NCBI GenBank assembly: GCA_009602725.1
Contig: WELB01000021.1
Span: 741,502-805,501, forward strand
Direction of reading: 5' to 3'
Origin: Spirogloea muscicola
Lineage: Eukaryota
DNA length: 64,000 bases
The translations under genes were made by a program, and so were the position numbers. Of the stretch, positions 2,560 through 58,400 are shown in pieces. The notes beneath the pieces are model-generated. The model was not told where the DNA came from. It was given only the letters and a program-made list of their open reading frames with translations, and did no database searches. Numbering within the stretch: the stretch's first letter is position 1; each line of letters begins with the position of its first letter.

Positions 2560-3020
2560 AGCAAAGTGCTCGAGGATTTACTTCAAAGTATTGGTCAAAT
2601 CCTATAGCTCATTTTAAGTTGGAGCTGACATTGTATGCTCATGCATCATCGGCCTGCAGAGGGTGTTGCTGAGCAAGAGGAACATTCTCAAGTTGCTTAG
2701 AGGCATGCGCGTCTGCTCGTGACTCCTAAATGCATTGTCTGGTTGAAATAAGCTCTGCGCACTTACAGCCTCACCTTAAGGAAGGATCTGCAGGCGCTGG
2801 AGGCTTCCTGCATGGCCTCAAAGAACCTCTCGAGGGCCTTCATGCAAGCTGGTGTCAATGTCATGCCCATCTTGGACAACTCGGCTTTTGCAGCTTGAAT
2901 GTCAGTGTAACCTTGGTCCAAGAGCTGAATGAGACTTTCGGCTTTCTGAGGAAGGCTCTGTGACTTCACCGACCACTGACTCAGAATCCCTTCAGCTCTG
3001 AGCTAGACGACTTTGTGGAA
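2560..3020 (-). pseudogene. Unknown multi-exon family, copy A (helical first conserved exon)
   Basis: AEGILSQW...LERFFEAMQEASSACRSFLK ends at an AAG|GTGAG donor at 2775/2774, the same motif and intron position as copies B, C, F, G and K. The next exon contains stops. Confidence 0.55.
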
Positions 3021-3549
3021 GGTCTGCGGTGCAGGACATGCCGAACACGAATCACCCTCAAGGAGAGCAAGCATACAACACATCAAGAAGCAGGCAAGAG
3101 GTACGAAGCTGCAGAAGACAGAGAAGCAGAATAAGTGCTGTGCGTGTATGCCATAAACAAAGGTCCTGCTGCCTGCAGTCTGTCTTGTGAGCACAATGTA
3201 CACACATTGCCATGTTGTACACGTGTGGAACCTTGTACACTGTGGCGCTTCTTGATGTACCCGTCTGCAAGGCAAGGTAGGCTTCCTATCAAAGTGCAAG
3301 TCCTACAACGGCTGTTTTCACCAATGCTGGCTGGCTGCAGTCATCCTGGCTGGTTGATGATGTTGACATTACTAATTTCAGTGGAGCAAGACTGAGTGGG
3401 CTCTTCCTGCCACCCTTGCTCCCGCTTGGGTCGTGACTTTGAAGTGTCTTCGTGTGCGTGCCGCTCCGGGCCTTGCCCATGTTCTGGCATGGTTCTGGCA
3501 TGGCATGCTTCCTAGCAGCCTGCTTGGGAGATTAGAAGCTCTACTGAAA

Positions 3550-3835
3550 ACGAAGAAGTGGCTCTCACAAAAGGGGCAAGGGCTGGCCCACTTACTGGGA
3601 AAGAAGTGAGCTTTCTACAGGGGGCGGGGGCAGCGAATGCCAGCCCATAAGGAATGGGCAAGGTCCAAAGGGCCGAATGGCGCTAAAACCACCAGATATG
3701 TGTGAGAGTACAGCGAAGGGGAGCTTAGTAACGCCGAGTCAGCAGCCGCAAAGGGGAGTAACGTGCAGCTGGAAATGAAGCACCCTGACGAGATCCGGCA
3801 GTAGCAGCCAAAGCGCGGCCTGCTCGCAAGTGCAC
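3550..3835 (-). mobile_element. 3' remnant of CRE-like retrotransposon
   Basis: ORF 3725-4009 ends HLRAGRALAATAGSRQGASFPAARYSPLRLLTRRY*, with terminal-motif copies at 3550-3690. Confidence 0.7.
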
Positions 3836-4479
3836 AACGGGAGCCAGGAAACTGTGGAATGGATGGCTGCGAGAGGCCAGCCCAGGAGGTGGAAAAGACG
3901 GCAAACTCCTACAACCCAAGGGCCGTGTGATGGTCATGTCGGACTTACAAATTGGGGTCTGCAGACACAACAGTGCCTGTTTCGTTGCCATAATAAGTTC
4001 GTACAACATGTTGAGCTCAAGTCTGAATTGAAAGGGTCCTAGAGCAACTTGTATGATCCCAAATCACACTAATCGCAGATGTCATGGCTAGCCCTCACAG
4101 CGAATCATATCTGACTTCAAGTTGTAAGTATCAAGTACGACCACCGAGATTGTACTAGCTTCTACCTTACTAGTCAGCATCGTCCTCGACTTGACACAGA
4201 CACAAGAGGGAGGCTCTCAAGTCACTTGGTTACTTGCAGAGCACTCCATGACAAAAGTAGCAAGTACACTTCATCAATAGCCATGTGCCGGTAATTATGT
4301 ACATCCTAAATACACCTGCTACAGAAGTCACTCAGTGTTTACAAGATTCATATGCCAAGTTGCACTGCATACTCATTGTACTCTGTAACTGCAACTAGGT
4401 AGCTGCAGCCTAAGATTACATTCAGTACACAAATGAGAAGGCCTAGGCTAGGCTGCACTTTGATGTCATTGCATCTGGT

Positions 4480-5100
4480 TGAATGTGCTCATGATTGTGA
4501 TTCCTTGGACTGCACAAGTGCCTTTTGCTCTGTTCAATGAATCTATTGAGGTCCTCGTGGGATACCAAGCCTGCATAAGATCACGGGCATGTCTCCTCAG
4601 TCAGTGCGACTGCCATTGTGTGAACTACTTAGCTTCCAAAATTGCTTTCCAGTTGTTACAGTCTGCCAGTTGACCAATTTCAGTCTGTGGCTTCAGGCTC
4701 TTGAGATACAGCAGCCTCATATGTTGCCGAGGAATATTGTCGCTGACTAGTTCCCATCAGAGACAAGACGTGCTACATTCAATGCCGCAAGTATCAGCCG
4801 TGTTGCTTGCGTGTCTCACCTGAATGATTTCAAGGCATGCACGTTGTGCATCATCCACTGCTTGCAAGAATCTTGACACAGAATCTTGCACAAGGGCAGC
4901 ATTGACAGGAGTCTGCCTGTGCATCTCCTGCATCAATGATTGTATGATATTTTCCGCTCGTTGCAACATGGGAAGCAGCAACAAGGCCTCCTGTCTTGGG
5001 TGTTGTTGGCTGTACGCTTGCCAATGCTGCGACAGATTCGTCATCGTATTGAAGATTACGGCTCGAGCAGCCAGGATGACCTGCGACCACAGAGCTAGCA
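4480..5100 (-). pseudogene. Unknown multi-exon family, copy B
   Basis: Exon ...NLSQHW...VSRFLQAVDDAQRACLEIIQ|GTGAG (donor 4820/4819). Downstream QAWYPTRTSIDSLNRAK matches QAWFPTRHALVHLNAAK of copy G. Internal stops are present. Confidence 0.6.
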
Positions 5101-6039
5101 GGTGCAAATTGGTCAAGCATGTGTATTCACACTTGACTACTTTGGAAGTCAGTTCAAGTCAACATAGTGATTATGGAAGCCTCTAGAAATACCAGTCTTG
5201 CTCATGAAAATGCTAGCTGTAGCCTCAAGATCCTGGCACTTAGGATAGTGAGAGGCCTGACTACTATCCTTGCCTAAGTACAAGGAGTACATCGAAATCT
5301 CTATGCTGCTTGGTGCAATTAGCAAAGGCGGAGAGAAGTGGCAATGCTGCAATCAGAGTGTGGCATGCTCACAGGCTGTGCTTGTGACGGGGTGAGGATA
5401 GTCGCATATCTAGTTCCACCATATGGATAATGGCCAAGACCAATGTTGGAAGCTGTGTCGAATGTCGCACTTGGCCACATTGTGTCCAGGTGCAGGAGAT
5501 CGTTGGATGCAGCACAAAGTCAGAAGCACGGAGCTGCTGGGACCTTCCCAGAACGTGTACGCAAGCGCCAAATGCTGAAGGCTTCCTAGCAGAGCCGGAG
5601 TCGGAACACCCCGTTACTTCGGAAGACTTCGACCGGACCTTGGAGCAGGCAGCTGGCAGGGTGTCAGCATTGACCTCGGGTAGCGGCGCGAGCGCAGCAC
5701 AGATGAGAGAAGGCGCCGCGGAGGATGGAGGGAGGCGGGCAAGGGAGCAGGGGTGGTGTGGAAGTGCGGCGCTTGGCTTCTGAGCAGCACTTACTGAAGG
5801 CGTACCAACGATGGCGGGCCGCCACCGCCACGCCAGGATGGGGGCCAAGCCTAGGAATGGCGGGAGCCGCTCTCCGCCATCGCGGGGTGGCCGGCCTCCG
5901 CCCCCTAGCCCTCCTTGACTAAACTTGACTAAGTGGCGCTTTTTAGCTGGCGCTATTCGGCGCCTTCCGACCTTGTCAATTCTTTCGGGCTGGCTGTTCA
6001 CAGCCCTTGCCCACTTTGGAGACTTTCCTTTTGGGAGAG

Positions 6040-6190
6040 AAGGCGCGTGGTGCGCATGAAATTGAAAGGGAGGCCAATTCTAGCCTTACAAGTGTCCCGT
6101 TAAATGGGTAATGAGCTGGCTAAGGGGGACATTAATATCCCCGAGTGAGCACATGCATATCTGACAAGCTATATTATATATCTGACAAGC
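6040..6190 (-). mobile_element. 3' remnant of a second CRE-like subfamily
   Basis: The minus strand reads SLSDMHVLTRGY*. The 3' UTR matches 34700-34832 (+) and 8035-8170 (-). Confidence 0.75.
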
Positions 6191-9327: not shown

Positions 9328-10640
9328 GAGAAAAGCGCGCCCATAGAAAAGAGGGGCTGGCCAAGCCAGCCCAAAAAAGAATGGACAATGTCCAAAGCCA
9401 AAGCAAGAGGAGCCGGAGAAAGGACTACACTACAACATACTGCAGAACACAGAAAGGATGCAGAGGAAAGCTCAGTACCCACGAGTGAGCAACATCAGGT
9501 CTGAGTAGCTCGCTGCAGGGAAAGAGGCGCTCCGCCGAGACCCAGAGGCGGCGGCATAGCACGGCCTGCGCGCGTATGGACGGCGTGGGCAAGGGAGCGT
9601 TGAAGCGATACGGCCAGGCGCATGCGGAAGACTTGTGCGAGCGACCCGGCGGCGTTGAAGCCGGGCATCGCCCCTGGCAGACCCGGCCGCCGGTCAATGG
9701 CCTGGCGAGCAAGCCGCTGAATGAGATCCAGCCAGCGGCTGCCGAAAGCCCCGTGTACATCCATCGCCAGGGCCGCGAATTCATCCCCCACTGGGTGATC
9801 AGCGTATTTTCGCTCCTTGCCGCGGGCCGCCTGGCCGACCGCGTGCCCTGCAAACGACGCCGATCTGGTGGGGTTGGCGGAGTCGATGCAGTCTGTTGTC
9901 ACCACATCAGCGATGATGCGGGACCGCCGCCGGGCGGGATTGCGACCAGGTCGGCGCGACGCGTATGGGGCTGGCCGTCCGCGCCCAGCTGGATGGGCAT
10001 GATGGAGGAGTTCTCCACCGCGACCTTGAAGCCCGCCTCCGAAAACACCCCCTGCATACCATCGCGCAGGAGGTCGTGGGAAGCGGTCCGCTCGCCCCCG
10101 TGTGCGCACCGGAGCATGTGGGCGGCCAGCTCCGCAGGATCAACGTGACGGGCACCGCACTCGCTTTGAGTGACGCCCACGAGGCAGGGAGGGAGGAGGC
10201 CCAAGAGCCGGTGGACCGCCGTCCGGAAGACCTCGTCGGGCATTGTGAGCGCCGCGTGGAGTGGAAGCGCCAATAGCCACGCCGCCGCCCCAGGGGAGGA
10301 GGCTGAGAGCAGTCGGGCGCGCCCTCGCAGGTCAGCCGGGGGGAGAAGCTCCACCACCTGGTCGGAGGCCGCTTGTTCAACCAACGCCGAGAAGCGTGCC
10401 TGGGCACGTCTGGTCTGGGGTGTGGGCGAGGTGGATGAAAGGAACAGCCTGTTCCGACATGCGGGGGTGAACTGCCAGGAGCCCGTCGCGGGCACGAGCG
10501 GAGGGCAACCTGAAAAGGCAGCTGACCGATCTCCACCTCAGCTGCCACCCGCTCCAGGACGCGCTGGCCGTCCACGAGGAACCTCTGGCTCATTGTGGCT
10601 GCCACCTGAGCCCAGCTACCCATGTAGGCCGAAGAGCCTT
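9328..10640 (-). mobile_element. Best-preserved CRE-like (RLE-clade) non-LTR retrotransposon fragment: post-RT region, zinc knuckle, restriction-like endonuclease and 3' UTR
   Basis: Frameshifted ORFs give SAYMGSWAQ (post-RT), ARLLSASSPGAAAWLLALP...FRTAVHRLLGL, a degenerate CCHC knuckle (ECG...HMLRC), and SHDLLRD, E, RRADL, IIADV, KERKY, FAALAMDVHGAFG (RLE pattern). It ends SYSDLMLLTRGY* (stop 9474-9472) followed by a ~145-nt 3' UTR. No RT core was seen. Confidence 0.85.
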
Positions 10641-11580: not shown

Positions 11581-12675
11581 GAGAAAGGGTTGGCAGCGTC
11601 GAAACCGCCACGCTTCTGCTGTTCGGCAAGCTGAGGACAAGCTGCGAGAAGGGCGCCGCGCAGTGGGGTGCGCACGTGCCTGTAATGACAAACATACCCC
11701 ACCTGAACGTGGGGATTCCTCTTCTCGAAGTGCAAGACAAAAGACCCGCTGTTGCTCTCCACCTGAAGTGTCCCGTGCGAGGGTGGTCAGGGTGGCGGTC
11801 TCCTCCCGCCACCCCACCAGCGTTCCACGCACGTTCTCCCCCTCCAGACAGATTCCTATCCCCACGGCCACCGCTGCCTTGGAGGGACTGCTGCTTTCTC
11901 ATTTGCCTCCTTCTTTTGTCATCTTTTGTCATTCTTATGACGACCCTCACTCCAGCCCTTCTCCCTTCCTTCCCGACGACACCTCTCCCAGCTCCCAGGG
12001 CCAAGCAGTGGGAGACGGGCACGAGGGAGCCTCGCCCAGTGATACGCGCATGCCAAGCAAACGGCGCGCGCCTCTTTCCCGCGCCTCGTGTCTGCCGTTC
12101 CTTTGCCGCTCGACCGGGCGTGGCTCCAGTCCACCAGCGGAGCCCGTTCCACCATCAGCAAAGCTCTGCAGCAGCTGCATCGCTGTTCCCCTGCCGCAGC
12201 TCGAGCTCGCGGTGTGGAGCTCACCGCTGCTGTCGGCCCGGTCATTGCTCTTGGCCGTCTTGCCTCTGCATCTGCACTGACTAGCACTCGAGGCCCCAGC
12301 AGTCAAGCTCGTTCAATGCCTGCTTCTTGCAGGTCCGCTGTCCCTGAATCTGGAGGTGGATACGCCACACTGCAATGTCTGAAATGGCCAATGCTGCTGC
12401 TGCTGCTGCTGGACGTGACGATGCACCGGAAGTAGAGGTGAGCTAGTTGAGCAGATCACTGACAGCTTGCAAATGACAACCGCACCTGATATGTGATGCT
12501 TGCTGACTTGCAGGTTCGACACACCACCAGCTAGCACTACAGCCTTTCTGCAGCCCTCAGCTGTCCTACTCCTGCTGTGTCGCGCATTGTTGCATTGTTG
12601 CTGCGCCTGGCTCGCCCAGAGCTTAGCAACTCATCAAACAGCAGGAGTGTCTCCCCTTGGACAGAAGAGTGACTT

Positions 12676-13510
12676 TTACTCAGCTGCCATTGTGAAAGTG
12701 GAGAATTGTGCAATCACGATCTTGCCCGGGTGGATTTTTGACGGCCATGGTGATCTGGAGAATATCAAGACCTTGTCTGAGGACCTGCTACACTGCACGC
12801 AGCAGATTGAGGAGCTGAAAGAACAGCAAAGAACTTTTGCCGAAAAGGATAATAATCTTGTCATGCATCTGGCACTGCAAGATGCGGCTGGCAAGCTTGT
12901 GGAAGCAATCAATGAAGCTCATCGGGAATGCAGTACCATATTGAAGGTCAATATACTAGCTTTGCGATTCTTTCCGCACTACTGCAAGAGTGCATGTTGT
13001 CGATCATCTGCTTCTCAGTGAAGTACCATTGATGGCTAGAAAGTGATGGCTTGATGTACGACGCATGGAGCAGCTTCGGGAGTATAAGTTTGCAGGAGCA
13101 TCTGACGCATCTGTGCCGGTGCTAACACACCGAGACTGAGCCCGTGCAGATCAATCTGTACACAGAGATGTTCATGCATGGTGCCCCTTGCAGAGTCGTT
13201 ACATCATATTGACTGTAAGAAGCTGCTGTAGGCCTGGCTCCAAGGCTGCTGTTCAAAGCGTCCCCTCTACATTGCTCGAGGAGTTTTTGAGGTCCGACAA
13301 GCTGTTCATGTGGGGCTCCTAAAGGCTGCACAGAAGACCAAGGTAACAGTCTTGCCTCAGCAGCTGTTGCTTGCGAAGGTCAGTTGACAGCTAGAATAAA
13401 TGAATGTGTTGACAATCTGATGCATGATACAGATTCAGCCTTCAGTTGGAGATCTGCAGCCTGTGAAACTGCTGTGCACAACATTGTACAGGCATATAAT
13501 TCGAAGTAAC
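12676..13510 (+). pseudogene. Unknown multi-exon family, copy C
   Basis: AITILPGW...AGKLVEAINEAHRECSTILK|GT (donor 12946/12947) matches the conserved first exon. Downstream similarity is weak. Confidence 0.5.
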
Positions 13511-13829
13511 CTGCCTGTCATCGCCTTGGTCCTGCTCGTGTTCACAAAAAGGAGAGAATTGGGCGCCAAGTCCAGCTGGGAGAGGTGCCCTCATAATCAG
13601 ATGCACATGACTACTTGTAGTATTCGCATATCAAGAGGCTTGGCTTCGGCGTGGCCTTGTCAAGGATAAGTAGATTACTTGTACTTTGTGGCAATCCAAG
13701 TTCTCTGTAGGAAATATAAGCCCTCTCATATATCTGCTAGAACGATGTTGCTTGATTGAGATGACGAGGTCAATGAGTAGAGCTGTAGATCTAGTCTAGC
13801 TACACAGATAAATGGTGTAGTGGCATCAA

Positions 13830-15340: not shown

Positions 15341-15359
15341 TGCATCTTCGCCTCCTTTT

Positions 15360-16080
15360 GGGAGAGCGGAGAGAATGGAGTGTGTATTAAATGATGGAGG
15401 GCCTATGTGGCCAAGTACAAAGGCAAGCACATTGACATATGTACATCACCTGCTGCTAAGCTGACCCGCTCAGTAACCACGAGTAAGCACTTAGAGGTCG
15501 CTAACTGATGCCCGAATACCGGACGGCAATCGATCAGCTCATGTGCCACCAGCTAAGGCTCGACTAGCTTTCTGATGCAAACCACGAGCCTGAGCTCGCT
15601 GCAGACAGGGTGACACTTGACGTCGGAAAAATGACAAGTAGGCTGCCGGCATGCCCATCTGGGCTTGAAGCACATCCTCACGTCGTGAAAACCCCAGATT
15701 TGCGAAGGGGGGGGGGTGCGCACGAAATGAGAGGGTGGTGACCGAGCCAAGGAAAACGTTCGTCGCAGACCCTCTAGTTAGCGGCCGCAAGTCAGATAGA
15801 CTAGCCGCCGTAAAGCTGTCCCCTTGACGAAAGCCAGAGGCTGCACTAGAGCACGGCCAGCACGCAGGTGCAGACGCCCATAGAGAAAGAGGGGCTAGCA
15901 AAGCCAGCCCAGAAAGGAATGGACAGAATCCAAAGGCCACAAGAAGGTGCCGGAAAGAAAAACTACACAACGAGACACGAAAGACGCGAATGGAAGCTTA
16001 GAGTGAGCATACCCGAGTGAGCAACAGCAAATCAGAATAACTCGAAGCTGGGAAAGAGGCACTGCTTGCTTCTTCGCCAT
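15360..16080 (-). mobile_element. Stack of three CRE-like 3' remnants from different subfamilies
   Basis: 15360-15690 reads FRRQVSPCLQRAQARGLHQKASRAL...VLTRGY*. 15770-15870 reads AASGFRQGDSFTAASLSDLRPLTRG. 15880-16080 reads SYSDLLLLTR followed by a UTR like 9330-9470. Confidence 0.75.
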
Positions 16081-18757: not shown

Positions 18758-18899
18758 GGGCAGGAAGCCACGCCAACTGCCCTCTTCCCCCCACCTCAAT
18801 TGTCACCTCGGTCAGGCCCTCCATCACTCACCTCGGCCTTCTTCCCGAGGCCCTCCACTTGTCCGTGTTGCCTCGCCGGTTAAGATGGCATGGCTTGGC

Positions 18900-22539: not shown

Positions 22540-23709
22540 ATGGCTCGGCTTGCCGTTGCCGCCTTGGCCCTCGCCTGTGCCGTCTCCGCCTTTGCCGCCT
22601 GCTCCCCATCCACCGCCAAGTACTTTGGTGGCGCCACCTCCGTCCAAATCCTGGAGAACCAGGTCCTCTTCACCTACGGCACCTATGGTTGCTACGCCTC
22701 TGTCGGGTAAGGGTCTGACTACCCTGGTTTCCATTCGCGGTTTTCTTCGAGCAATACCTGCCAGAAGAGAGTCTGCCTTGTGGATGCATCCTTCATTGTC
22801 CTGACGACCGTCCGTCCATTCTGAAGGGGATCCCTTCCAATGCAAAGACTGATTGCCATGCATGTACCTTTTTTGGTGCCTGCCAGTTCCGGAGCCGGTT
22901 ACACCGGCTTCAAGGCCAATACCTACCAGGTTGCCTCATCTGACGCGGCCATGACAACCGCCCAGGAGAGTGGCTTGGGCTTCAGCAAGCTCACCATTCC
23001 TCAGGGCCTGCAGTCTTACTCCATCCTCTACAATGGCGGCACTCGGCTGGCGCTGTCTTGCCAGAGCCTTGCTGACCTCTACTCTGGCTACTCCGTCGCC
23101 ATTGGCGGTGGTGCCATTACTGTCCCAGTCGGTCGCTCCGACTCCTCCGGCACAACCTTTGTCTTCTCTTCCTACCTGAATCTGTGCACTGCTAGTGGTT
23201 CCCGCCCGTGGCCCGCGTCCAAGGTCGGCGAAACTGTCGCGTGGGGCTCCCCTCGCCTGGTCACTGCCGCCGGCTCCGGCGGCGTTGCTTCATACGTTCT
23301 CTCCCGCCCTGGTTCCCTCACCTATCTTGGTAATCCAGTTGCCGCTACCTTGGTTACCGGCAACATCCGCATCGCTTTCACAAACAACCATGCTGACCAG
23401 AACTACCAAGGTAGCTCATGCTTTGTGACCAGTGCCGTCCCCATATCTTTACCGTCTGCTACAGCCACCTGGTCTAAAGTCAGGACCATTTTCCAGCCTG
23501 GCTCCGGTGTCTGCCCTATGGTATCATTCGTCTACATCTGGGCCCGCAAAACATACCTCCCTGGCATTCCCACTGTTACTCAAACAAAAGCTTTCCTCAA
23601 CTTCACATACTCCACCTCCGGTCAAAACCTCCTCCCTCCCCTTGGCTTTGTAGGTGTACCCTCCAGCCTTCTCACCCAGAACAGGAATGCTGTTGTTACC
23701 ATTACATAG
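22540..23709 (+). CDS. pstS: Secreted PstS/DING-like phosphate-binding protein, 329 aa; exons 22540-22706 and 22887-23709
   Basis: Has a signal peptide (MARLAVAALALACAVSAFAAC). A phase-2 GT-AG intron joins the frames to give YASVGSGAG. The motifs GGATS, SVGSGAG, SSDAAMT, GRSDSSGTTFVFSSYL, GSGGVASYV..PGSLTY and PMVSFVYI follow PstS/DING order and include the phosphate-ligand residues. No stops. Confidence 0.88.
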
Positions 23710-25365: not shown

Positions 25366-25791
25366 CTAATGCTGTGATCGAATATCACTACGTTTGCATT
25401 GGAATTCAGTCGTGTCAAATTGTTTAGAGCTTGTAGCAACAATCGAAGCAAGGTGTAAGTTGTCATACTTTGGAATTTGAGCACCCTGCTTGGAGTCAGA
25501 CATCCCTGTAAACTGCTCATCGCCATCTTGCTTTCCTGCCCGAGAGTTAGCAAGTGCAGCTACTTTAGCTCTGCTAACGGCATTAGCTTGACAGCTGGCT
25601 AATGGTTTTGTCAGTTGGTCCAGGTGCTTCTCCAGTCTGTCGAACTGAGACTCATCCTTTTTCGTGAAGTGAGTAGACGAAGATCCCAGGGACTGAGCAG
25701 ACAAAGTATTTGGGTTCTTCTCCCAGTAATGTGGATCGACATGACCCGACCTTCCGCAGTAAGAACAAGTCGCTCCAAGCGTCTGATGCAA
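25366..25791 (-). mobile_element. LTR-retrotransposon gag fragment (probably Copia)
   Basis: CSYCGRSGHVDPHYWEKNP is a degenerate CCHC zinc knuckle in the usual gag context. Confidence 0.55.
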
Positions 25792-25919
25792 GGCAGTGCA
25801 AATATTACTTCATGTGACCTGTCTTACCACGACTGCGGCACTTCACAACAGCTCGTGGTTGGTAATGGTTAGCTCCATGGTTCATCTTCTGAAAGTTACC
25901 AGGTTCAGCCCCAAGCTGC

Positions 25920-27585
25920 CTCCATCTCTAAGTTGCAACCGCCACTGCATGAATGCAAGTCCTCCGCCGCCACCCCTAGTGCCCCATGCCTTCCGGCCGC
26001 TATGGATCTCAAAGCCGGTCAACATGCCTGCGGCAGATCTCAATAAAAAAGGCTGCATGGCTTATGTGAGTTCACAACTGGCACAGCAGGATCACTCCAA
26101 GCGCACCATGGGATGCATGAGCTGCACGGGCAGGCCCTCCATGAGTTTGAGGTGCCGACGCATGTGAAGGTCCTTGACATGGGCATTGCTGCAGCAGCAG
26201 GAGCTGCATCAGCGACTGCAGCAGCCCGAAGATATGGTGAGTAGGTCTTGACCACTCTCTTGCCAGTGCTTCTTGACGCAGCTGTCTGGGAAGGCAAAGT
26301 TCGCTGACAAATAAGTCTGTAGGCGTGACTGAAGCTCTTCATTGGTATTGTGAGGCTTGGATGGAGGATGCAGGCGTTGGCCTGACTACCTTTGATACAA
26401 AAGTTATGGTCCTTGAAGCTACTCAGAGACCCTGCATGCTTGACCAGAGTTGCACTGAGATAGATGGATGGATTCTCAAGTGCGACTCAGATATACTTTG
26501 TCATCCTTGCCGATCTTATAGGCCTTCTTGCTGGCACAACTGATGAGCTCCAAACAGCTGCAAAATGGAAGGCTTCATGATGAGCTCCAAACAGCTGCAA
26601 ATTGGAAAGCTTCATTACTTCCATTGCACCTTTTGGAGATGCAATCTAAAGGGTCCAAGCTTCACCTGAACGGCCAGCTTATCCCTCTCTTGGCATACAG
26701 TCCGGGTGGTTGTGAGCTGTGATTGGTATGATGCGTTGCATAGGAACGGCATTCTTGGATAGCAATGCAGAAGTGCTATCAGGATGTCAGGATTCCTTAG
26801 TCAGCCGGGAATTATTAAGATGCCTGCTGCAGACTGTCTGACCAGTGCAGAGGCTTACTGGAGTTTAGGTCAGTGCTCAGTACTTGATGCCGAAGCACGA
26901 GGAACAGATAAACGTGACATTCCAGTAAGACCACCTTAGCAGCAAGCAAATGCTCCAAGGCGCGGCGACTTGGAAACCAGGCCTGCAGCCAGGTAGATTT
27001 CATGGAGCAGGTCATGCCATATATCCCATGATCGGCCCAATGTCCAATCGCAGCAAGCAAGTACCGATGCAGAGCGTGATATCTCAACAAGAGCAAGCTG
27101 CACTGCTTAAAGGACGCCTAGCCCTAGCATTTGTACATGGCAGAAGTATGTCAAATCGGCTTGTACCAGAAGTAGGTGAATCGGACGGTTATCTACAACG
27201 GAGCGCACTGAACTAGAAAAAGACGGGCATTTACAATCTATTGACGATTCTCGCAAATGATTGTGATAGCTTGTGAAGTCAAGGAAGCCAGTAAAGCAGG
27301 GGCGCCAGCATTCTTGGGACGGGTCAACAAGGCTGGGTCAACAAGGCTATTTTCCTATTTTCACCTGGAGCACGTTGTTACACTCGTGCTTGCAGCAGTG
27401 ATGCTATCCAAGAAGGAGGACAGGACCACAAGTGTCTGAGGTTCTAGATACACTGCCGTACTTGCCAATGTGGGCCTCCAGCACTCCAGAAGCATCAGGA
27501 GGTCACTATGAAGATGTGTGGCTGTCGCTCGGGCAGTTCTGCGGAGATGCCATGCTTTCACAAGTGTGCTGCCTATGCAGAAGAC
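25920..27585 (-). pseudogene. Unknown multi-exon family, copy F
   Basis: Exon 27585-27365 reads VFCIGSTLVKAW...VLSSFLDSITAA, then a frameshift, then ECNNVLQ|GT. Next comes GHWADHGIYGMTCS..WLQAWFPSRRALEHLLAAK. It aligns in DNA with 29400-31250. Confidence 0.65.
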
Positions 27586-29084
27586 CTGCCAGAGAGTCAC
27601 GGATAGACAGTGCACACAAGTTAAATTTGCACGGCCGGACCTCCCGGATGCTGGTCGTCACTCTTCGAGCACTACAATCTGCCCTCTGGTATGCGGAAGA
27701 GGGTGTCCTCTGGCATGCGGAAGAGGGTGCCAACTGGTTTATCGAGCTCGACGAGCATTTACACACCAGAAAGACAATGGCAGCTAGAGGATGGAGTGAC
27801 GTGTGCGACGACCAATGCAGATGTGAGCATTCAGCGGAGGTGCAGGGCACGTCCAGACGTCCAAGGGCCAGAGAGGCCATACCGGGAGAAGGAGGGCGAA
27901 GCCGAAGACCGTCCAGACCATGTCACTGGAGCGCGCGCGCCAGCGGGGGAGGCAGAGAAAGGCGTGCGGTGGGTGCGAAGAGGGCAATGCACAGCTCGTG
28001 GTGAAGAGAGCCAAAGGAGAGCGGGCGAGGGGACTGCGGCGGGCGATCTGAGGGCCGCCGCGGAGCGCGGGGCGTGGGAGTGCTGCTGCGCCTGCTCGAG
28101 TCCCGTGGCTTGGGGGAAGGCAGGAGGGATGCGCCGGAGTGCCGGCTGTTTTCTCTTCCTCCCCCCTTCCTCACTTCCCTGCAGCTTCCTAGCAGCTTCT
28201 CGCAGGCGAGGCGCTGATGGGGGAGGCGGCACCTGGGGGAGGCGGCGGACGCCCCCGCCCGTGCGGGCCAGTAAGGGAGGGCCTCGAGCTCCTCCCTGGG
28301 ATGGCCTTCGGACAAACAGCTCTTCCAATATAAGGCAGTGGCTGGGTAACGCCAGCCCAAAAGGAATGAACAAGGTCCAAAGGGCCGAAAAGCGCCACCA
28401 CCACACAGCTCTGCAAGCTTTTTCCACATCTGGGAATGGCTGCTGCTTGGAAGAAAGGGGCTCTCCTCATAGCTGTGTGGCTTCAGCGCCTTCGTGGCTG
28501 CTCAACAGGGCTGCTCACCCAGTGGCCACTGAGTTGCTGTGTGCTATAGTGCTTCTCTGGCCCCTTCACGCTCTGTTCATTTTTTTTTCTGTGCTGGGCA
28601 ATCACAGCCACCGCCCTCTCCCGGAAGAGTCTTCCTTCTCCTTCTGTCGGCCCTTGTGAGCTTGGCCTCTGACAGCCATTGCCTTATATTGGAAAAAGCT
28701 GTTTCCTTTTGACCTTGTCCATCCTTCTGGGGCTGGCTTTTTATGGCCCTCGCCCCCTTCGAAAGAGCTCTTAAACCACACAGTTAGGCAAAGTGGCTGC
28801 AGCGGACGAGAGCTTACTAACCCCGAGTCAGTAGAAGAAGCCCTCCTTTCCCAGCCCCTATTCTCTGTGGGCGCTCACTTCTCTCTTTCTCCTCCAACCC
28901 TCTCCTTGCACAATCTAGCATTTGAAGAAGCTTGCTACTGGAGAGCATCCGTGTCATACTCCGCTGGGCCCTTAGTTGGCGCCGGCGAGGCGCGCCGCCT
29001 CGGCCAGCGGGAGATGCTGCGCGCTCCTCCCCTGCAGCTAAGACTGAAGCTGTGCACATGCACCGGTGCGCACGGGGAAGAAGA

Positions 29085-29310
29085 CGTGTGTGAAGTGATG
29101 GAGGGCCTAAGTAGCCCAAGTACAAAGACAAGCACATCCAGAGATATACATTACGTGCTGCTTAGCCGACCCGCTCAGTAACCACGGTTCCGCAAGTAGA
29201 GGTCGCTAGTCGACGTCCGATGGCTACCGGGTGGTACTTTGAAGCCCTTATGCGACCCATCAGATGTCGCCCAGCTCTCAAGTGCAAAGCGCATGCCTGA
29301 CCTCGGTGCA
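29085..29310 (-). mobile_element. CRE-like 3' remnant
   Basis: ALHLRAGRHL...TSTSDLYLRNRGY* followed by a UTR related to 15360-15470. Confidence 0.65.
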
Positions 29311-29399
29311 AGTAGGCTACTACACGACAAGGAGAAGAGGGGAGGTGCGAGGGGAGGGGCCGTCCACCACTTCCTATGCAACCCCATGAGGGTGTCTTC

Positions 29400-31123
29400 C
29401 TGGAGGCACCCCGCACACGGACTGCCTCCACGTCTTGATTGCCACCACCACTGCATGAACGCAAGGCTTGCACTGCCACGACACGTGCCAAATGACACAC
29501 CCCCGCTATGGCTTTCAAATCTGGTCAACATGCCTGGGGCAGATCTCAATTAGATGAGGCTGCATGGCTGACGTAACGTGACAACTGGCTAAGCAAGACT
29601 CAATCCAAGCCCACACTGGATAAAATGAGCTGCATGGGCAGGCCCTCGATGAGGTGCCCATGCTTGTGAATGTGCTTGACACAGGCTTTGCTGCAGCAGC
29701 AGGAGCTGCATCAGCAACTTCAGCAGCCTGAAGAGGGGGTGAGTGAAATTTTGCCACCCTCTTGCCACTTCTACTTGAGGCGATGCTCTGGAAAGGCAAA
29801 GTTAGCTTGCGCTACAACCAGGTCTGCGGCGTACTTTTACCGGACCGTAGGCTAGTCACAGCATACAGTGACCTATAGGCGTGACTGAGCTCTCAAGCTC
29901 TCAATCGAGAAGTGTAAGGCTTGGGTGGAGTATGCAGGGTCTTGAGCTGACCACCTTTGATACAAAAGCAGCAGTCAGGTCCTCGATGCTACTTATTGAC
30001 CCTGTATGCTTGACCTGATAGCATTGAGGGAAGATGCGCGGTGCGCAATGAGATAGATGGATCGTCAGATACAACTGGAAGTCTAGTTCGTCCTCGTTGT
30101 ATGCAATGTATGCCTTTTTGATGGCACAGCTGATGAGCTCCACCAAGCTGCAAATTATAACAGTTCTCATCACTTCCAGAGTTGCACCTCGGAGATGCTA
30201 TCTAGAGGGTCATCAAGCGTACAGTACATCGGAAAGTGAGCTGAGTGACTAGCATCATGCATTGTAGGAATGGCATTCTTGGAGAGCAATGCACAACTGA
30301 CACCAGGATGTGATACTCCCGACTATTCAGAAATTCTCAAGATGACTTCTGTGAAATGTCTATTGGAAGAAAGATCTTACCAGTATTTAGATCAGTGCTC
30401 AGCTATTGATGATGCTTCTGAAGAACGAGGATGAGGTCCAGGAGATATCTCAGCAGGACCTGCTTAGCAGCATTCAGATGCACCAAGGCGTGGCGAGTTG
30501 GAAACCAGGCCTGCAGCCAGGAACATATTATAGAGCAGGTCATGCCAAATGTCCCATAATCGGCCCAATGTCCAACCACCAGCAAGCCAGTAACCACGAA
30601 GAGCGTGACATGTCAACAGAAGCAAGCTGCACAGCAAAAGGAGGCTCTGCCACAAGGAGCAAGCCCTTGCCACCTAGATTGTTCATGTCAGAAGTATCTT
30701 GTGCTGTGCTTGTACTATGAGCAGGTGGAACAGACGGTTACGTACAGCGGAGCATACTGAACGAAGAGAGACAACCATTACAAGCGCTAGACAATCATCT
30801 CGGAAGATCGTGATAAAAGCGTACAAGTCAAATGGTCGCCACTGTATGGGGGGGCGTCAGGGTGCTCGAGACAGCTCAACAAGGCCTATTTGAAGTGTCA
30901 CCTGGAGCACGGTGGTACACTCAGAGCTTGCAGCAGTGATGCTGTCCAAGAAGGAGGACAGGACTTCAAGTACCTCAGGCTCCAACAGCAGTGCCGTGTT
31001 TGCTAGTACAGCCCCCCTGTATTCCAAAAGCATCAGGAGCTCACTTTGAAGACCTGTGGCTTTCGCTCGGGCAGTTCTGCGGAGACGCCATGCTTTCAGG
31101 ATTGCCCTGCCTATGCAGAGGAC
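29400..31123 (-). pseudogene. Unknown multi-exon family, copy G
   Basis: Has an intact 222-nt exon, 31123-30902, with AG/GT borders (VLCIGRAILKAW...VLSSFLDSITAASSECTTVLQ). Downstream are GHWADYGTFGMTCS..WLQAWFPTRHALVHLNAAK, HTGSISSIEDLTAAFVSK and EICPRH. Later exons are disrupted. Confidence 0.65.
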
Positions 31124-33179
31124 CTGCCAGAAGATTCACAGAAAGACAATGCACATGAATGAAAGAATCTTTCAGTGGAGGGCTTAACTTGCATACATGA
31201 GCTACATTACGGCCAGACACCCCGAATGCTGGTCGTCACTCTTCGACCACATCGCTCATGACAGTGTCGAGGTTCAGTACAAAGCAACAGTCCAGATGCT
31301 GAAAACAGATGCCCAAGGGATAGTCACTGATACGACCCATGATGTTGGCTAGCTATGAGCTTATGAGACCATCTTGTGACTTGAACTTTGTTTGTTTGAT
31401 GGGGAGTTGGAGCTCATGTTGACTAGACTTATGACGATTCTTTATGTTGTAGAGAGTGCCAGCTGCCTGTTAGCAGCTGCATGCAGATGTAATTATCACT
31501 CACAAGCTAATGGTTTCCCGCCTAGCAACTGTGCCCACTCTTGAAACGGTTGTCCGTTGACAGTGTCAGCACAACTCAAGAACGATAGACTCGAGCGGTG
31601 GTTCCTTGTTGAGCTACTGCATGCTCTTCTGGAGCTTGCGAAATCTTCAAATTTCCTGCAACCAGTGAACCTGCTCAGACCACCAAGATAACGCACGACG
31701 ACAGCAACGTAAGCTGTCAGACAGCTGTCACGTCCAACATCTATTTAGCACAACAATGGCGGTACTTACTCCTATGGAAAGGTATGGCAAAGTGTACTTG
31801 TCGGCTTGATAGGGGGTCCCTCTCCCTCCCTTCGGCTTATCTGATGTTCTATTGCTGACACGGGGGTAATTGAGTGGTCCTGTTTGCCCAGCCTGCGGCT
31901 CCACATAGTGTAGATGCTCTCCAAAGTTTCTCCTCATGCACTCGGCTCGCTTTCAAAGCCGCCCCTGAAGAAGAGTAGCGGCCTTTGTCATGCTGATTAT
32001 TGATGATCTGGACGGTCTTCTGAGCCAGGTCCCAACCTTTTAGGTCTTCATTCCTGGTAATGTTGCGTTCTAATGACCACAATAGGCTCACGCACGACTT
32101 GACTCGAGTTAACCTTGAATGGGGGGTAAAGAATATGGAAGGCAGGGGACCATCATTGACACACCCAGGGACTTTGCTGAGGATCACAGATTCCTGATGA
32201 CCACCAGGCTAAATGTTGCACAGAAAATACAAGCTCTGAGGCGACCAGGACGTTGAAGTGGGGGAAATTCACACTATGGAAGGACAACATGCTAGCAGGT
32301 GTAGATTGGAGATGGAGGCTGGAGACTGGGGACTGTTCGAGAGTCGCAGCTAAGATGAGTTTCAACTTCTGCAGGCTTGTTGATTTGCACTTAAGATTGG
32401 CTCTGTGGTCTCTCCTCAGTGAACGGGCGACGTGTTTACGACTAATCTATAAGCAAGCGTGCAGATAGGCAGGGATTGACGGTGGTGCAAATGGAAGCTC
32501 CAAGTGTTGACAACATCATAGGAGCCTTTGTGGCATATTCAGTAGAGCTGGGGGTATCCTCTGCAGGCAGCTAGAGTGGTTGTGGAAGCACAGTGAGTGC
32601 TTCAACGAGCACAACAGCTCGTGCTTCAATGAGCACAAGAGCTCCCCTGGCCTCCTCTTCACAGGCATCGCGTCCGGCAACTGCTCACCCGTCATCCCGC
32701 TATGGCGGTAAGTTTTTGGTGAGCTCACAAATGGATACAAGCGGAGGGATGCCTATTTGAATTCTAGGTGAAGTCCAGCCTGCCTGCACACTAGCATTGG
32801 TTCCAAAACAATCTGAAACACTGTCTTTACAGAGCTAATTTTACTTGTCCGTCATTCATTGGCCTGCTTCTCTTTGAAGTGACATGCTACGCAGTATGTT
32901 TCCACACTCGCCCCGCTGCAAGTACCTCCTACTAGCTGCAGTTGACATCATTGGTTGTATGGGTCATCGTTTTCAAACCCCGGTAGAGAGTACTGCTAAG
33001 ACATGGACGAAATGAGGATGTGCTTCCGACTGAGATGGGCTTGCCGGCAGCACTTTCTTCCTCGCACCTTCTTGTGTCAGCCTGTTTGCAGCGAGCTAGG
33101 CTCATGCTTTGCACCAGAAGGTGGACGAGCTCTAATTGTTGACAAAGGGACTTTCGGTGTGCGCGAAACATTCTTGAGC

Positions 33180-35470: not shown

Positions 35471-36313
35471 CACCTGTAGTGATCTCCAAGTTTTTCTGAC
35501 TCATTTGGCCTCCTCCTCATTTTATGCGCACCGCACACCTTCTTGCTCTCCTCTGAGCACTATTTCTGAGCAAAAGTAGTCACGGGGGATGAGTGGCAGT
35601 GGTAATGAGAAGTGTTGCCAAAAGGGGGCTATGATTGTGACAGGCCAGCCCTAAAGGGATGAACAAGGTCCGAAGAGAAGTGCTCGACCATAATGCGGGA
35701 GGGCTCGGCCTCGGGGACCAGTTGGAGGAGGAGCCCATCAGCAGCCATGTTAACGGGCGCCGCCAACAGCTCGCCGCAAAAAGATGGCGGGCTCTCGCTG
35801 GGAGCGCGCAGCTGCCGCTGGGTCGCGCCTCGGCGGACGGCGGCGCAGGCCACTCTGGCGGCGTCGTGCGCGGGCTACCGCTGGCGCTGCTGGATAGGGG
35901 CTGGGAACGGCCAGCCCAAGAACAATGAACACGGTAGTCAGTCTCCCTACAGCGGTCCATGGCCCACGCCTTGCATCTTCGTAAGTACTGAGTGGTCCAT
36001 CCTCCCCCGTTCTGACAGATCATGGTCAGGCCCCTTCGTAGCTGCTTAGCGCTGTAGGCCCCTCCGTCATTGGGCCCCTTCGAACGTAAGTCAAGTTCTT
36101 TTCGGGCTGGCTTTTTACAGCCCTTGCCCCCATTGGGCGAGCCACTTCTTATTAAAATGAATGAACAAGGTTGGAAGGGGCCAGGGGAAGCGTTGAAAGA
36201 AACATGTCCGAAGGGGCCGGTTAGAGCTAAACCACACAGCTAAGCAAGTGGCTTCCACGAAGAGCTGCATAACGCCTATTCTGCTAGTGGGGGTGCCTCG
36301 TGAGGGGTGCCCC

Positions 36314-37635
36314 TGCGCCTTCCGTCATCTGTATTTGCCATCTGGTATTCAGGAATCGCTTAGCGACCTTCATGTGTTGTCCCGTGCTTACTGAGCAGGT
36401 CAATTTACAGTAGGTAATGTACGTCGTTAAATGTTCTTGCCTTTGCACTTGGCCATTTTGGCCTTTGATCGTTTCAAATACACAAGGTTTTCCTTCCGAC
36501 CCTTTCAGACCTTGTTTGACCTTATTGAGTTGGCTCTCACAGCCATTTGCCTCGTGAGTTTATCTTTTGGGGTGCCCTGTCCCTTGCTGGGCCTCGTACG
36601 CCGCGACCACGCCGCGACGTAATCAACGCTTGCTGAGTACCTGGAATTCCGCGGGAATTCCAGGTGGGTGCACACCAGGTCGTGGCGCAGCCGCCAGAGC
36701 GTGGCGGCAGCGGCAGCGGCAGCGGGCCGCCACTGCCACCACCTAGAAGAAGTGGCTCCGTGCGCCTTCCGTCATCTGTATTTGCCATCTGGTATTCAGG
36801 AATCGCTTAGCGACCTTTATGTGTTGTCCCGTGCTTACTGAGTAGGTCAATTTACAGTATGTAATGTACGTCGTAAAATGTGCTTGCCTTTGTACTTGGC
36901 CAGTGTGGCCTTTGATCGTTTCAAATACACAAGGTTTTCCTTTCGACCCTTTCAGACCTTGTTTGATCTTATTGAGTTGGCCCTCACAGCCAATTTGCCT
37001 CGTGAGTTTATCTTTTGGGGTGCCCTGTCCCTTGCTGGGCCTCGTACGCCGCGATCACGCCGCGACGTGACCAACGCTTGCTGAGTACCTGGAATTTCCG
37101 CGGAAATTCCAGGTGGGTGCACACCAGGTCGTGGCGCAGCCGCCAGAGCGTGGCGGCAGCGACAGCGGCAGCGGGCCGCCCCACCGCCACCACCTAGAAG
37201 AAGTGGCTCCGTGCGCCTTCCGTCATCTGTTTTTGCCATCTGGTATTCAGGAATCGCTTAGCGACCTTTATGTGTTGTCCCGTGCTAACTGAGCAGGTCA
37301 ACTTACAGTAGGTAATGTACGTCGTAAAATGTGCTTGCCTTTGCACTTGGCCATTTTGGCCTTTGATCGTTTCAAATACACAAGGTTTTCCTTCCGACCC
37401 TTTCAGACCTTGTTTGACCTTATTGAGTTGGCTCTTACAGCCATATGCCTCGTGAATTTATCTTTTGGGGTGCCCTGTCCCTTGCTGGGCCTCGTACGCC
37501 GCGACGACGCCGCGACGTGACCAACGCTTGCTGAGTACCTGGAATTTCCGCGGGAATTCCAGGTGGGTGCACACCAGGTCGTGGCGCAGCCGCCAGAGCG
37601 TGGCGGCAGCGGCAGCGGCAGCGGGCCACCACCTA
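36314..37635 (+). repeat. Direct tandem triplication of a ~450-bp unit (starts 36314, 36761, 37212)
   Basis: Three near-identical units. Each begins with a CRE-like ORF end (LPSGIQESLSDLYVLSRAY*) and UTR, and contains a 27-28-bp palindrome. Confidence 0.95.
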
Positions 37636-37695
37636 ACACCCCCTATCCCTCCGCCAATTAGTCAGAAAGGCCCACCTAGAGGCCTGTGAAAGCAA

Positions 37696-52899: not shown

Positions 52900-54060
52900 G
52901 AACCATGCCAGTACAAGGCAAGCGTAGTCACAAACACCGTTGGGGTCCATCGCGATTGCTGATGACCTGCTGGACGCTCAAATGGCGTCGCCTGCTCCCT
53001 TGGGCGGCGCTGCACCCTGGCAGCGGGAGTGGATGATTGTTGGCCCGTCCCCGCACTGCTCTGGCTGCCGCCTGGTGGAGGCCCACACACGTGCCCGGGC
53101 CACTTTGTCCTCTGGCTCGTGTAAGGGAGCTCAGGCCCTGCGTGCAATGCTTTCTTTTGCGATGCTATGCGCCGCCGTCCTGGCTTACCATCCCTGTGCT
53201 TGGCAGGGGTGACTCAGAGTGAACGCGGGCTTGTTGAGCATGATGCATTGCTTATGGGTGACCACACGCTCAAGTGTGCCAAAGGCAGTGAGCGCATGGG
53301 TTCCTACAACCTCCTAGGTGACGCGATGTATGGCATCGTCAAGGAGGCGGGATATCAAGTGGCGTCATAGAGCACCGGGGTGAGGCCCGTCCATATCCGC
53401 CACGCTGTCCGTCTGACGAGACGTGTCAATCTGGTTGGCGTTCTCCTGGGAGATGGCAAGCGGCTCCTCATGGACGTCGTCCTCACCAACAGCTACCGGC
53501 GGAAGAAGAAAGAGAAGAAGTGGCTCTCCTATTGAGGATAGGGGCTGGAAAAGCCAGCCCAAAAAAGAAGGAACAAAGAAGGGCCCATAATTTCTGAGAC
53601 CGGCTATGCTGTGAAGGTGGCCGAACAGAAGAAGTTGCATTAGTACAAGGACCACCCGGCTGGTGATACCTTTTACCCCCTGGCCTGGCCATGGACATCC
53701 ACGATTGTTACAGTGGTCGGTGGTCCTCTTTACTTTCGCTGCTGGCCTCTCAAGCTGACCAGCGGCGCCGGGAACACGGTGCAGCATTTCCTGGAGGTTC
53801 GGTGCCTTTGGGTCTTGTGTCCTGCTACCGCATGCGTTTATCTATGTCCCTCCAGCGGTCCCAAGCGCTTGCTTTGCACCGCCGCGCCGGTCGCGCCCTT
53901 GCAGCAGCCTCTGGCTTCCGCAGCGGGGTTGCTCTTCCTCCCCTCACCTCATCTGACTTCTTACTGCTGACACGGGGGTACTAAGAGCGCCCTGTCTGCC
54001 TAGCCTGTGGCTCCGTCATGAAAACCTGTATGCATCTGGCTGGCCTTCTTCAGCCGCTCT
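52900..54060 (+). mobile_element. Decayed CRE-like RLE fragment interrupted by an antisense 3'-end insertion (about 53500-53640)
   Basis: CLAGVTQSE..GDHTLKCAKGSERMGSYNLLGDAM..EAGYQV, TRRVNLV, LLMDVVLT and RMRLSMSLQRSQALALHRRAGRAL...SSDFLLLTRGY* (53984) align with the 9328-10640 element. Confidence 0.85.
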
Positions 54061-54769: not shown

Positions 54770-56340
54770 TTAACCAGATGTGTCTTCTGAATGCTGAAAA
54801 TTTTGAATGTTATACACTTGCATGCCCTGTGATTCTCCAGTCATGTTTACACCTATGCTGCATAGTTGGTCGAGGTATATAGGCTTCAGCGCTTGACCAC
54901 TTGGTGAATACCCTGTCAGAAATGCTCGACCACATATTGATAGCTTGCTCAACGTTTTGCCAGGCTGACGTCTTCTGTGCGCTATACGGCCTCATAGCCA
55001 CGCCCTGCAGCCACGGGGACAGGGCGTGCATAGATATCAGTAGGCAGCATGTAACTCGGCACCTCCTCAGCAGGTGTACACTAACCAGGTACACAGGAGT
55101 GCCGACATTTAGAGAAGCATCACGTCAAGAAGCATAAGCTAGGCTCCCTTGCAAAAGAGGGACAAGGTGGCGCTTGCAAGCGTGTCATGGCTGTTGTAGA
55201 TACCATGGCTGTTGTAGATAGCATGGCAGATTCTCACCATGATTATGATCGTGCACATACTCATAGCCAACAGATGACTTACGTAACATTCAACGGGCTG
55301 TGAGCGCCAAACAGTGCTGTACTCACTTACACGGTGTCCAAATAGTTGTGAGCACGTTCCCGACCTTACCCAGATGGCCGTTAGCCTCGTGCAGGGTGGT
55401 CCATGCCGCCCTGGCACTGGTGCAGTCGTCCGTCCAGTCTGTTTCGTCCAGGCTCGTCCGGATGGACTCGCATGCCCCCGAGCATGCTCGGCCTCGGCTC
55501 AACGGCATGGCGCCTGTCGAGACACCTGTGGATCCCTCGTGAGGCATGTACTTCAGCTCCTAGCTGTATATAAGGGTGTATAAGGGGCCGAACGCTACAA
55601 CTCATCTGTGCATGCTTGTCAATCCTCTTACTAAGCAAGGAGACCATGGGCCCCGTGCAGCTTGCTCGTTCTCACGGCAGCTCATGTCAATAAGGCTGCC
55701 GGTATGATTGTCTACAGATATTGCAGGACATGTACACTTAAGGCGTACGTGCGGAGCAAGTGTTGTGTCTTCATCATTAGCAAGCGTTATCTTAGCAAGC
55801 GTGATCTAGGACATTAGCGTAAGGCTCAATGTGATCCTCGCTTCGGTCAAGTGTTGAAAGACTGGCAGAAAAAGGTTGATGGCAGTAGAGTAGCACAGGC
55901 AGGTAGGGACAAGCATGATCAAGAATAAGTTCCTCCACCTTATCATGGCACTCAGAGATGATTAGCTTGAAAATGCGTTCAATGAGTTGAAGTTGAAGTA
56001 TCTGCTGGAGAACGACTTTACTTTATGCATTATATTCACAATAACCTCAACTCTCTCCACTGATGCAGCAAGAGATGCTGCCACAAGAACTCAACTGATG
56101 AGTGGAAGTAAGAGATGCACAAAGCAAGAAGCATTCTCCTCATTGACATGCCCAATAACAGTCCTCCATTTGCATTTTGACTTCCTTGCAGGCTGTGTCA
56201 AGATCCAAGATCTCCTGCTTGCATCAATATTGCTCGCTTGCTGTCAAGACCATCAATTGCCACGCCCTCCTATATATTGTAAGAGAGTATTAGAAGCCAG
56301 ACATGCTGTCCTACAGATTGGCCGCACCTATGATACTTGC
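54770..56340 (-). pseudogene. Unknown family, copy J
   Basis: ETDWTDD...NGHLG and SIGVNMTGESQGMQVYNIQN match copies E, H and K. Confidence 0.4.
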
Positions 56341-56449
56341 AAGAAATGAGGAGACATTTGCACCTAAATGACACCATTTTGTTTTACTGAGAGATCTTGC
56401 TGTTGCAATACTGCAATTTGCTCAGCTATACTATGCTCACTGGTAGTCA

Positions 56450-58400
56450 GCATTACTATCCCGGATCCAGCAATTCTGGATTCTGAATCTGGAGTATGAG
56501 ACGTCTAACTTCTCGCGGCCTTTGATTGTAGCAATCTCCAACAAAGGCTGAGGCAACATCAGTTTCTTGACTCATATGTTTCCAGCAAGAGGAGCATATC
56601 TGTAAACTGTCTTACCCAGTGCCTGTTACTTCTTTCCGAAGTGCTCCTCACTCACGGCTGCAGCTCAGAGAGTGCTCCCACTTACAGCTGCATTCCATGG
56701 CCCCTTCGAAATTGCCTGCTTCACTTCTCTTTTATGTGATGAAGTGGAGTTGGCAGCAAAGCATCACATATAAGGTAACATCACCAAACCCATGACTGTC
56801 CTTGACCAACTTGAGAGAAGGTCTTCCAGTACCTTCTGAGGTCCTTCAATGTATATTATCAAAGGGGTAAGCTATCAAGCAAGGTAGGTAGGATAGGTAC
56901 ACTTGTAACTTTGAAAGCACTAAGTAGTCAGGGACACAGCGCGGACCACTGCAATGCTTAGCCCGGCTGCCTTCTCTGACAGGAGCACAATTCAATGTCC
57001 AAGCATACCAATGATTTCACAGCCAACCGCAGTATTACTAGCCTTGCTGTGATTGCAACTGAGTAAGCTTACACAGTGTCATACTTTGAGGTGACCTAGG
57101 GCAAGACGGCAACTTGACGTCTGTAATGCTTTGTGACTTTTGCATGGAAAATGAGAAATCTGCGATTGAGACAGCTAATTTCCGGGCTTGCATAGAAGCA
57201 AGTGCAATCAAAAGAGTGGTCAAAAGGTGGGTCATGTATGTATGGGGACCATTGTATAAAAGCTGATGCGGGCAAATGTGCCTGTCATGCATATCTAGAA
57301 AATATACATCAATCCCCTTGCGCAAGCTAACTTCTCTGCACATACAACTAGGCTTCAGCGCCATCAGTGAGGCCAAGGCGTCTTTGTCACTTGAGGCGGT
57401 TGAACAGAGCAGCAAGTGCTATTGAGATGCTGAGGAGGCCCACAACTATTGCTCCAGAATAGGGCACGTGCCTGCTGAAGGTGTATCAGAGGATTAGATG
57501 TGGTTGGTTGAACTTACTGGTGTCAGTGGCCCTTTGAGGAAGACCTAGACATCTGGGAGAGAGCTCACACAGCCATTGGCAGCGCGATGGGCAAAGCACA
57601 CATAGAGTCTATTGGAAATGAACTGGTTTGCTAAAGATCTAAAATCCGTTTGAGACCCACCGTATGAAATGAGGTCCAAACTGTGCATTACAGCTTGGAC
57701 ATATATGCAAATAAGTACAGCATTAGAAGCAAGCCTGCAACTCACCAAGACGGGGCTTGCACTTGATGGAGCAAGGGCTCAGGCAAGAGATACTGATTAT
57801 AACCTTTTGCCTCAACGTCGAGAATTCGAAGGGCTAAAAAGAGTTGAACGGCGTAGTCATTCCGTGCTGCTTTTAGAGTTTGCAACGTGCCCCATGACAA
57901 GGCAAGAGTCTGCTCGTAACCCCAGCACAACATCAGCGCAACGAAGTTACCTACTGTAAGTCCATTGCCAACAACGTTGACAAGTTTCTGCTCGGTGTAT
58001 CTAGGTTGAGAAGCTAGACCGTTAACAAATGAGCAATAAGAAAGGTTGACATAGGTAGTACGTTGTTAATCCCAGCCGTGGCAGCACAGAATGACTTGGC
58101 ATATTTACAAAGAGGAACTGACACGTACCTTGCGGCAAGAGTAGTATGCATCATAAGTAGCTGCCACAAAATTCTCAAGCACAATCTTGATTCCACTTGA
58201 AAGAACTCGACTGGTCTTACAAAACTCCACTATATTTTGCAGAACAGTAAAAATAGCCTCCGATACGAGCTCTCGAAATGCTTCTTGCGAATCTTGGCGA
58301 CTGCCAGGCCAGCTTTTCAGGACCTTCTCCCCAGACTCTTTGATGGTGGTGTACAGCTTCATGCACAAGCAGATGATCAAATTGGTGAAGTGTGCTGTCT
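56450..58400 (-). pseudogene. Unknown family, copy K (most complete motif series)
   Basis: In order: GEKVLKSW...LENFVAATYDAYYSCRK|GT (donor 58129/58128), LQTLKAARN..LFLALR, CRLASNAVLIC, GGSQTDFRSLANQFISN, HDRHICPH, IGMLG, RFRIQN. Stops and frameshifts are present. Confidence 0.55.

Follow-up and report, generated by a model that had tools for sequence, protein, structure and literature searches.

Several described groups of proteins are built on small helical bundles. The RPW8, MLKL and CC-NLR executioner domains occur in fast-evolving clusters, and the bundles of FAT and talin bind an amphipathic helix of a partner protein. The rice DUF1110 protein PBI1 (PDB 7x8v) is mainly nuclear and has as partners a U-box ligase and the WRKY factor WRKY45, with stronger binding to the C-terminal half of the latter. 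A 64,000-nt stretch of the genome of the zygnematophyte alga Spirogloea muscicola (contig WELB01000021.1, positions 741,502 to 805,501, forward strand; hereafter the window, numbered from its first base) carries a small gene with introns in six diverged copies, which define an apparently undescribed protein family. The copies share a homologous core and a common phase-0 intron, and the core is predicted to be an up-down four-helix bundle. The copies, with the duplication that links two of them, are as follows.

57387..58689, minus strand: copy J, intact gene of 179 codons; exons 58689-58627, 58356-58129, 57909-57746 and 57471-57387 (with stop)
30403..31252, minus strand: copy G, open for 123 codons through the whole core; predicted exons 31252-31211, 31123-30902 and 30510-30403
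26859..27585, minus strand: copy F, pseudogene and recent duplicate of G; exons 27585-27365 (1-nt deletion near 27384) and 26982-26859
12375..13669, plus strand: copy C, open for 230 codons; predicted exons 12375-12437, 12665-12946, 13232-13342 and 13433-13669
4466..5480, minus strand: copy B, open for 157 codons through the core; predicted exons 5480-5373, 5080-4820 and 4570-4466
2436..3002, minus strand: copy A, pseudogene; intact core exon 3002-2775 and a tentative second exon from 2474
25916..31164, minus strand: direct duplication holding F and G, two units of about 1.8 kb (25916-27625 and 29422-31164)

The evidence for common descent lies in the two core exons and the intron between them. 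A phase-0 GT donor is present at all six positions at which an earlier note on this DNA had placed one (2775, 4820, 12946, 27365, 30902 and 58129), that of copy F being in frame only by virtue of its 1-nt deletion. The conserved motif that ends at this donor (motif 1) was assessed with hidden Markov models from which each lineage in turn was left out, against the maxima of five shuffled windows (4.5-10.2 bits). Five of the six copies were recovered as scoring above shuffles (A 23.7, G 15.5, B 11.8, C 11.7 and J 7.4 bits), with copy J marginal (6.5 bits for an unrelated match in the window) and the frameshifted copy F not recovered. The homology proposed in the earlier note for motif 1 is thus real, and profile similarity extends beyond the F/G pair.

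The acceptor side of the intron agrees with this. In B, C, F and G, an AG directly precedes the conserved tryptophan of motif 2, and the acceptor of copy J is the junction used by its paralog P0001 (described below); the core intron is 219-391 nt long across these five copies. All stop-free phase-0 GT-AG joins in the window (n=2366, 2052 of them unrelated) were also scored, leaving out one lineage at a time, and the predicted junction came first among the local joins for J (14.5 bits), G (33.8 bits), B (41.1 bits) and C (26.7 bits), compared with 5.1-11.3 bits for the best unrelated joins. The junctions of B (4819/4570), C (12946/13231) and G (30901/30510, with both G and F left out) were top joins, against unrelated bests of 11.3, 7.0 and 5.1 bits, respectively. 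The true joins of A and F were not candidates because both copies contain breaks; the first core exon of A still scored 29.6 bits, and that of F only 6.6. Exon 2 is weak alone, only that of G being recovered above shuffles. Core identity between lineages is 12-29%, and in a tree A groups weakly with F/G (support 77) while the J subfamily stands separate (support 99). A3 and A6, in which MAFFT misplaced exon-2 fragments, were not used.

Copies F and A are broken and copy J is intact. Under the junctions of P0001, copy J is open and encodes the putative four-helix core and, C-terminal to it, a hydrophobic tail (the 19 residues from position 157 have a hydropathy of 2.31). Its four exons are 62, 78, 95 and 81% identical to those of P0001, and the last of them encodes a hydrophobic, basic-ended helix, conserved in P0001 as well. 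In B, C and G the core is open with canonical splice sites, whereas the outer exons are enumerated guesses: the first exon of B is inferred, that of G is inferred from F/G conservation, and the first and last exons of C were chosen by splice-site enumeration only. Copy G stops right after helix 4 and has no tail, copy B has no tail in frame, and copy C, possibly an intact unannotated gene, has a short hydrophobic stretch near 13500-13550. Copy F has no ATG at the position of G's start. The tentative second exon of A, not significant by itself, meets a stop after 11 codons and then a dispersed repeat (about 2343-2446).

The two F/G units are 68% identical over 1829 columns of DNA and are the sole alignable pair, in keeping with the earlier description of the copies as mostly not alignable as DNA; between lineages, flanks do not align either. 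The F/G core exons are 81% and 76% identical, versus 69% for the core intron. The dN/dS comparison suggested in the earlier note gives an omega of 0.68 (95% bootstrap 0.39-1.29), not distinguishable from 1. Just beyond the F unit lies an ORF (25369-25809, minus strand) with a short Cys/His knuckle-like motif and weak zinc-finger matches (E 0.039).

The earlier note had seen about ten decayed copies, each of about 2 kb, of an old multi-exon birth-and-death family on both strands, marked by an ordered series of motifs numbered 1 to 7. The family and its two orientations (C on the plus strand, the other five on the minus) stand. Its size does not, since a spliced-core profile found no further copies in the window (best match beyond the six, 4.8-5.1 bits; shuffle maxima, 2.4-7.8). 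Two copies are clearly decayed, A and F, and the others not clearly so; copy J spans 1.3 kb. The family is old, diverged and turning over locally, given the low core identity, the two broken copies, the recent F/G pair and a paralog on the same scaffold, but its protein is small (about 120-230 residues) and carries none of the later motifs.

The second half of motif 2 is genuine (3 matches versus 0.07 expected), its first residue being the CAG splice acceptor, whereas the first half is intronic in F and G and is common to them as intron sequence of a recent pair. In copy J, motif 3 begins at the exon-2 splice donor and the matches to motif 5 lie within an intron and downstream of the stop codon; the window has no match to motif 6 in its written form. 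The later motifs as a series were examined by frameshift- and intron-tolerant chaining over 11 downstream or candidate regions (those of A, B, C, F, G and J, plus 18.9-20.4k, 32.4-33.9k, 54.4-55.9k, 44.8-45.5k and 17-18.4k). Only one of the 55 pairs, F/G (467), rose above the highest of 110 sense-versus-antisense nulls (121); the runner-up reached 105, and a masked tblastn scan likewise supports F/G alone. Some counts weigh against dismissing these motifs altogether. In shuffles preserving 2-nt blocks only, motif 5 (13 versus 6.1 expected, 0/100 shuffles) and motif 7 (3 versus 0.85 expected, 3/100 shuffles) are in excess, and motifs 3 and 4 are borderline (8/100 and 7/100 shuffles). The excess of motifs 5 and 7 is not fully explained, and their matches are scattered and tied to no core. 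Motif 7 is not taken for a kinase motif, since its matches have neither a core nor a Pfam match nor pairwise support.

Relatives were found in one species. The six first core exons used as query returned a single protein, P0001 (EukProt, S. muscicola), and a later search returned P0001-P0004, all S. muscicola models. A HMMER search of 1.84 billion representatives gave eight matches: these four models and four repeat-summing artefacts. The latter, P0005-P0008, were dropped because each adds up numerous short matches within a repetitive protein (P0006 was judged by Pfam table and stretch count only). The four models are as follows.

P0003 (SM000021S06510): copy J itself; automatic model with no function, skips exon 2
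P0001 (SM000370S13764): J subfamily; automatic model with no function
P0002 (SM000015S01276): J subfamily; automatic model with no function, has an insertion
P0004 (SM000021S06493): J subfamily; automatic model with no function, stops after exon 1

Exons 0, 1 and 3 of copy J are 100% identical to P0003, whose locus of 1303 nt equals the span of the copy; this match places the window in S. muscicola. The absence of exon 2 (57746-57909, minus strand) from P0003 is likely an annotation error, because this exon is 95% identical to P0001 (exon 1, 78%). None of the models represents A, B, C, F or G. Automatic annotation has thus missed or mis-spliced most of the family: five of the six copies have no model among the matches, and the model of J omits its most conserved exon. 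P0004 lies on the scaffold of P0003 and the other two on different scaffolds; a genome triplication reported as recent in this species (PMC11604088) could account for some of these J-type paralogs. In the libraries searched the family is restricted to S. muscicola; rapid divergence, or incomplete libraries, may be why other algae show no members. The protein matches no known family or transposon ORF: Pfam and NCBIfam hold no family for the copies or P0001-P0004, PDB sequence searches gave nothing under E 0.089, and the best ESM Atlas score, 0.79, was below lead level. The F/G exon-2 alignment, which included intronic residues, gave no match as a query. No paper on these genes was found in a literature search that covered few subscription journals and main texts only; tables of the genome paper could list them. 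The family appears undescribed in the literature searched, although clustered families that are confined to one lineage and adopt a common fold are familiar.

The predicted fold comes from an AlphaFold2 model of P0001, a four-helix bundle of about 115 residues (pLDDT about 80); a first model (pLDDT 47) and its fold searches were set aside. The tail is predicted to be a membrane anchor of the J subfamily on the strength of its hydropathy (2.3 in J, 2.2 in P0001) and its conservation in two genes. Tentatively, and with a little under an even chance of being right, the bundle may be read as an adaptor or decoy that has no enzymatic activity and binds other proteins; in the J subfamily the tail would probably hold it at a membrane. 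By analogy with FAT and talin it might bind an amphipathic helix of a partner or, by analogy with PBI1, sequester a regulator. The genes would have multiplied through local duplication and inversion, the copies later diverging and some being lost. The up-down bundles of FAT, the talin rod, vinculin, the MCP ligand-binding domain and PsbQ are 2-19% identical to the family, a common arrangement that does not in itself show kinship, and are mostly domains of larger proteins. PBI1, at 6% identity, is tied with dozens of unrelated bundles, and the DUF1110 profile does not match P0001-P0004 at E up to 10 within HMMER filter limits. Unlike the mainly nuclear PBI1, copy J has a hydrophobic tail, and the WRKY45 half that PBI1 binds has no defined counterpart here.

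A less likely, though conceivable, alternative is a far-diverged RPW8/MLKL/CC-type executioner that oligomerises in membranes and triggers cell death, the cluster being an algal defence or self-recognition locus. The family resembles these domains in size, four predicted helices, fast divergence and clustering with loss, and presumably resembles RPW8/MLKL in the spacing of hydrophobic, C and W residues. However, the hydrophobic helix is C-terminal rather than N-terminal, and the fusion to NB-ARC or a (pseudo)kinase by which NLRs and MLKLs are defined is absent: copy J ends after 179 codons, and no such match to Pfam occurs in 96 flanking ORFs. The RPW8, MLKL_N and MCAfunc profiles matched none of the 11 rows or P0001-P0004 in searches whose HMMER filters drop weak matches and where most rows are single exons, and MLKL, RPW8 and CC-NLR chains were not among the 50 matches listed in the fold searches, though they may rank lower. 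In favour of this reading, CC/RPW8-like bundles of streptophyte algae kill cells when expressed in Nicotiana, according to one study (PMC10952240). A broader version, rather improbable at present, is that the algal sisters of land plants have an undescribed, fast-evolving family of immune proteins that consist of a four-helix bundle on its own and serve as decoys tethered to the membrane or as executors of cell death; paralogs with and without a tail would together form one NLR-independent defence or self-recognition locus. Under the defence reading the cluster would provide, close to where land plants arose, an immune module that works without NLRs and is open to testing; failing that, it is an ordinary cluster of genes confined to one lineage, and its fold is common.

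Only slightly less credible than an executioner, and still unlikely, is that function is confined to the J subfamily, the remaining copies (A, B, C, F and G) all being non-functional remnants of an old expansion. The J-type genes alone have models in the libraries, the F/G omega is compatible with neutrality, and A and F are broken. Against this, the core exons of B, C and G remain open and their splice sites canonical, although these copies are 15-23% identical to J, and the F/G exons are better conserved than their intron. More doubtful again is descent from a tail-anchored trafficking protein, with a tether bundle or one like SNARE Habc, that would have lost its SNARE motif and diverged beyond recognition. 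The C-terminal hydrophobic helix of J and P0001 recalls a SNARE, but the better model has four helices, not three, there is no SNARE Pfam match, and in place of the roughly 60-residue coiled coil only about 25 low-confidence residues separate bundle and tail. Trafficking genes, moreover, seldom diverge to 15-25% identity within one genome. Possible resemblances to ROH1/BPS1 and syntaxin-6 found no support in Pfam.

Least probable is that the copies belong to an unrecognised mobile element, as the cargo that the earlier note had also entertained or as an accessory ORF, or to a virus: both orientations, the repeat-rich setting (53 copies of a repeat of about 70 bp) and the lack of relatives outside the species would suit it, but the spliceosomal intron is conserved and one subfamily is both intact and conserved, and there are no terminal inverted repeats or long terminal repeats at any of the six copies (14-34 nt matches for A, B and G, none for C, F and J), no transposase, reverse transcriptase or integrase match in 34 or in 96 ORFs (short decayed fragments could escape), no match in a viral fold library at E <= 0.001, and no alignable flanks between lineages.

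The window is repeat-rich eukaryotic DNA of about 54% GC, in which the following neighbours and repeats were recorded.

43785-44678, minus strand: ORF with a WRKY DNA-binding domain (Pfam E 1.6e-22), between copies G and J
60052-62084, plus strand: DUF7796 gene (Pfam), with a weak FkbM methyltransferase match at its C-terminus
22825-23709, plus strand: PBP_like_2 (phosphate-binding-protein-like) ORF (Pfam E 1.1e-09), with a hydrophobic signal-like stretch upstream
557-629 plus, 5959-6022 plus, 28320-28384 minus, 62467-62533 plus and 62897-62963 minus: example copies of the repeat of about 70 bp (nhmmer)
15373-15706, 47184-47512, 29086-29327, 32934-33144, 36311-37645, 2343-2394, 48111-48179 and 58853-58922: second repeat family, 150-330 bp

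The 53 copies of the first repeat (nhmmer E <= 0.01) lie on both strands, often clustered or as inverted pairs, such as the last two examples; it has no Rfam match and possibly represents ends of miniature inverted-repeat elements (MITEs) or a regulatory motif. A 450-bp tandem triplication at 36311-37645 contains three copies of the second family. Fragments at 40900-43000 (plus strand), which by eye resemble a decayed Ty1/copia element, have no Pfam match in the ORFs scanned. Two related remnants of Cys/His-containing ORFs, 9899-10537 (minus strand) and 53125-53393 (plus strand), are 62% identical as DNA; they presumably recall the C-terminus of a non-LTR retroelement, with no supporting Pfam match. 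A helical exon at 38143-39130 (plus strand) is apolipophorin/DUF948-like below the cut-off, and the exon after it has a weak NCLDV capsid match (E 0.023) that is probably due to chance. A long GA microsatellite with one N inside occupies 47568-47870.
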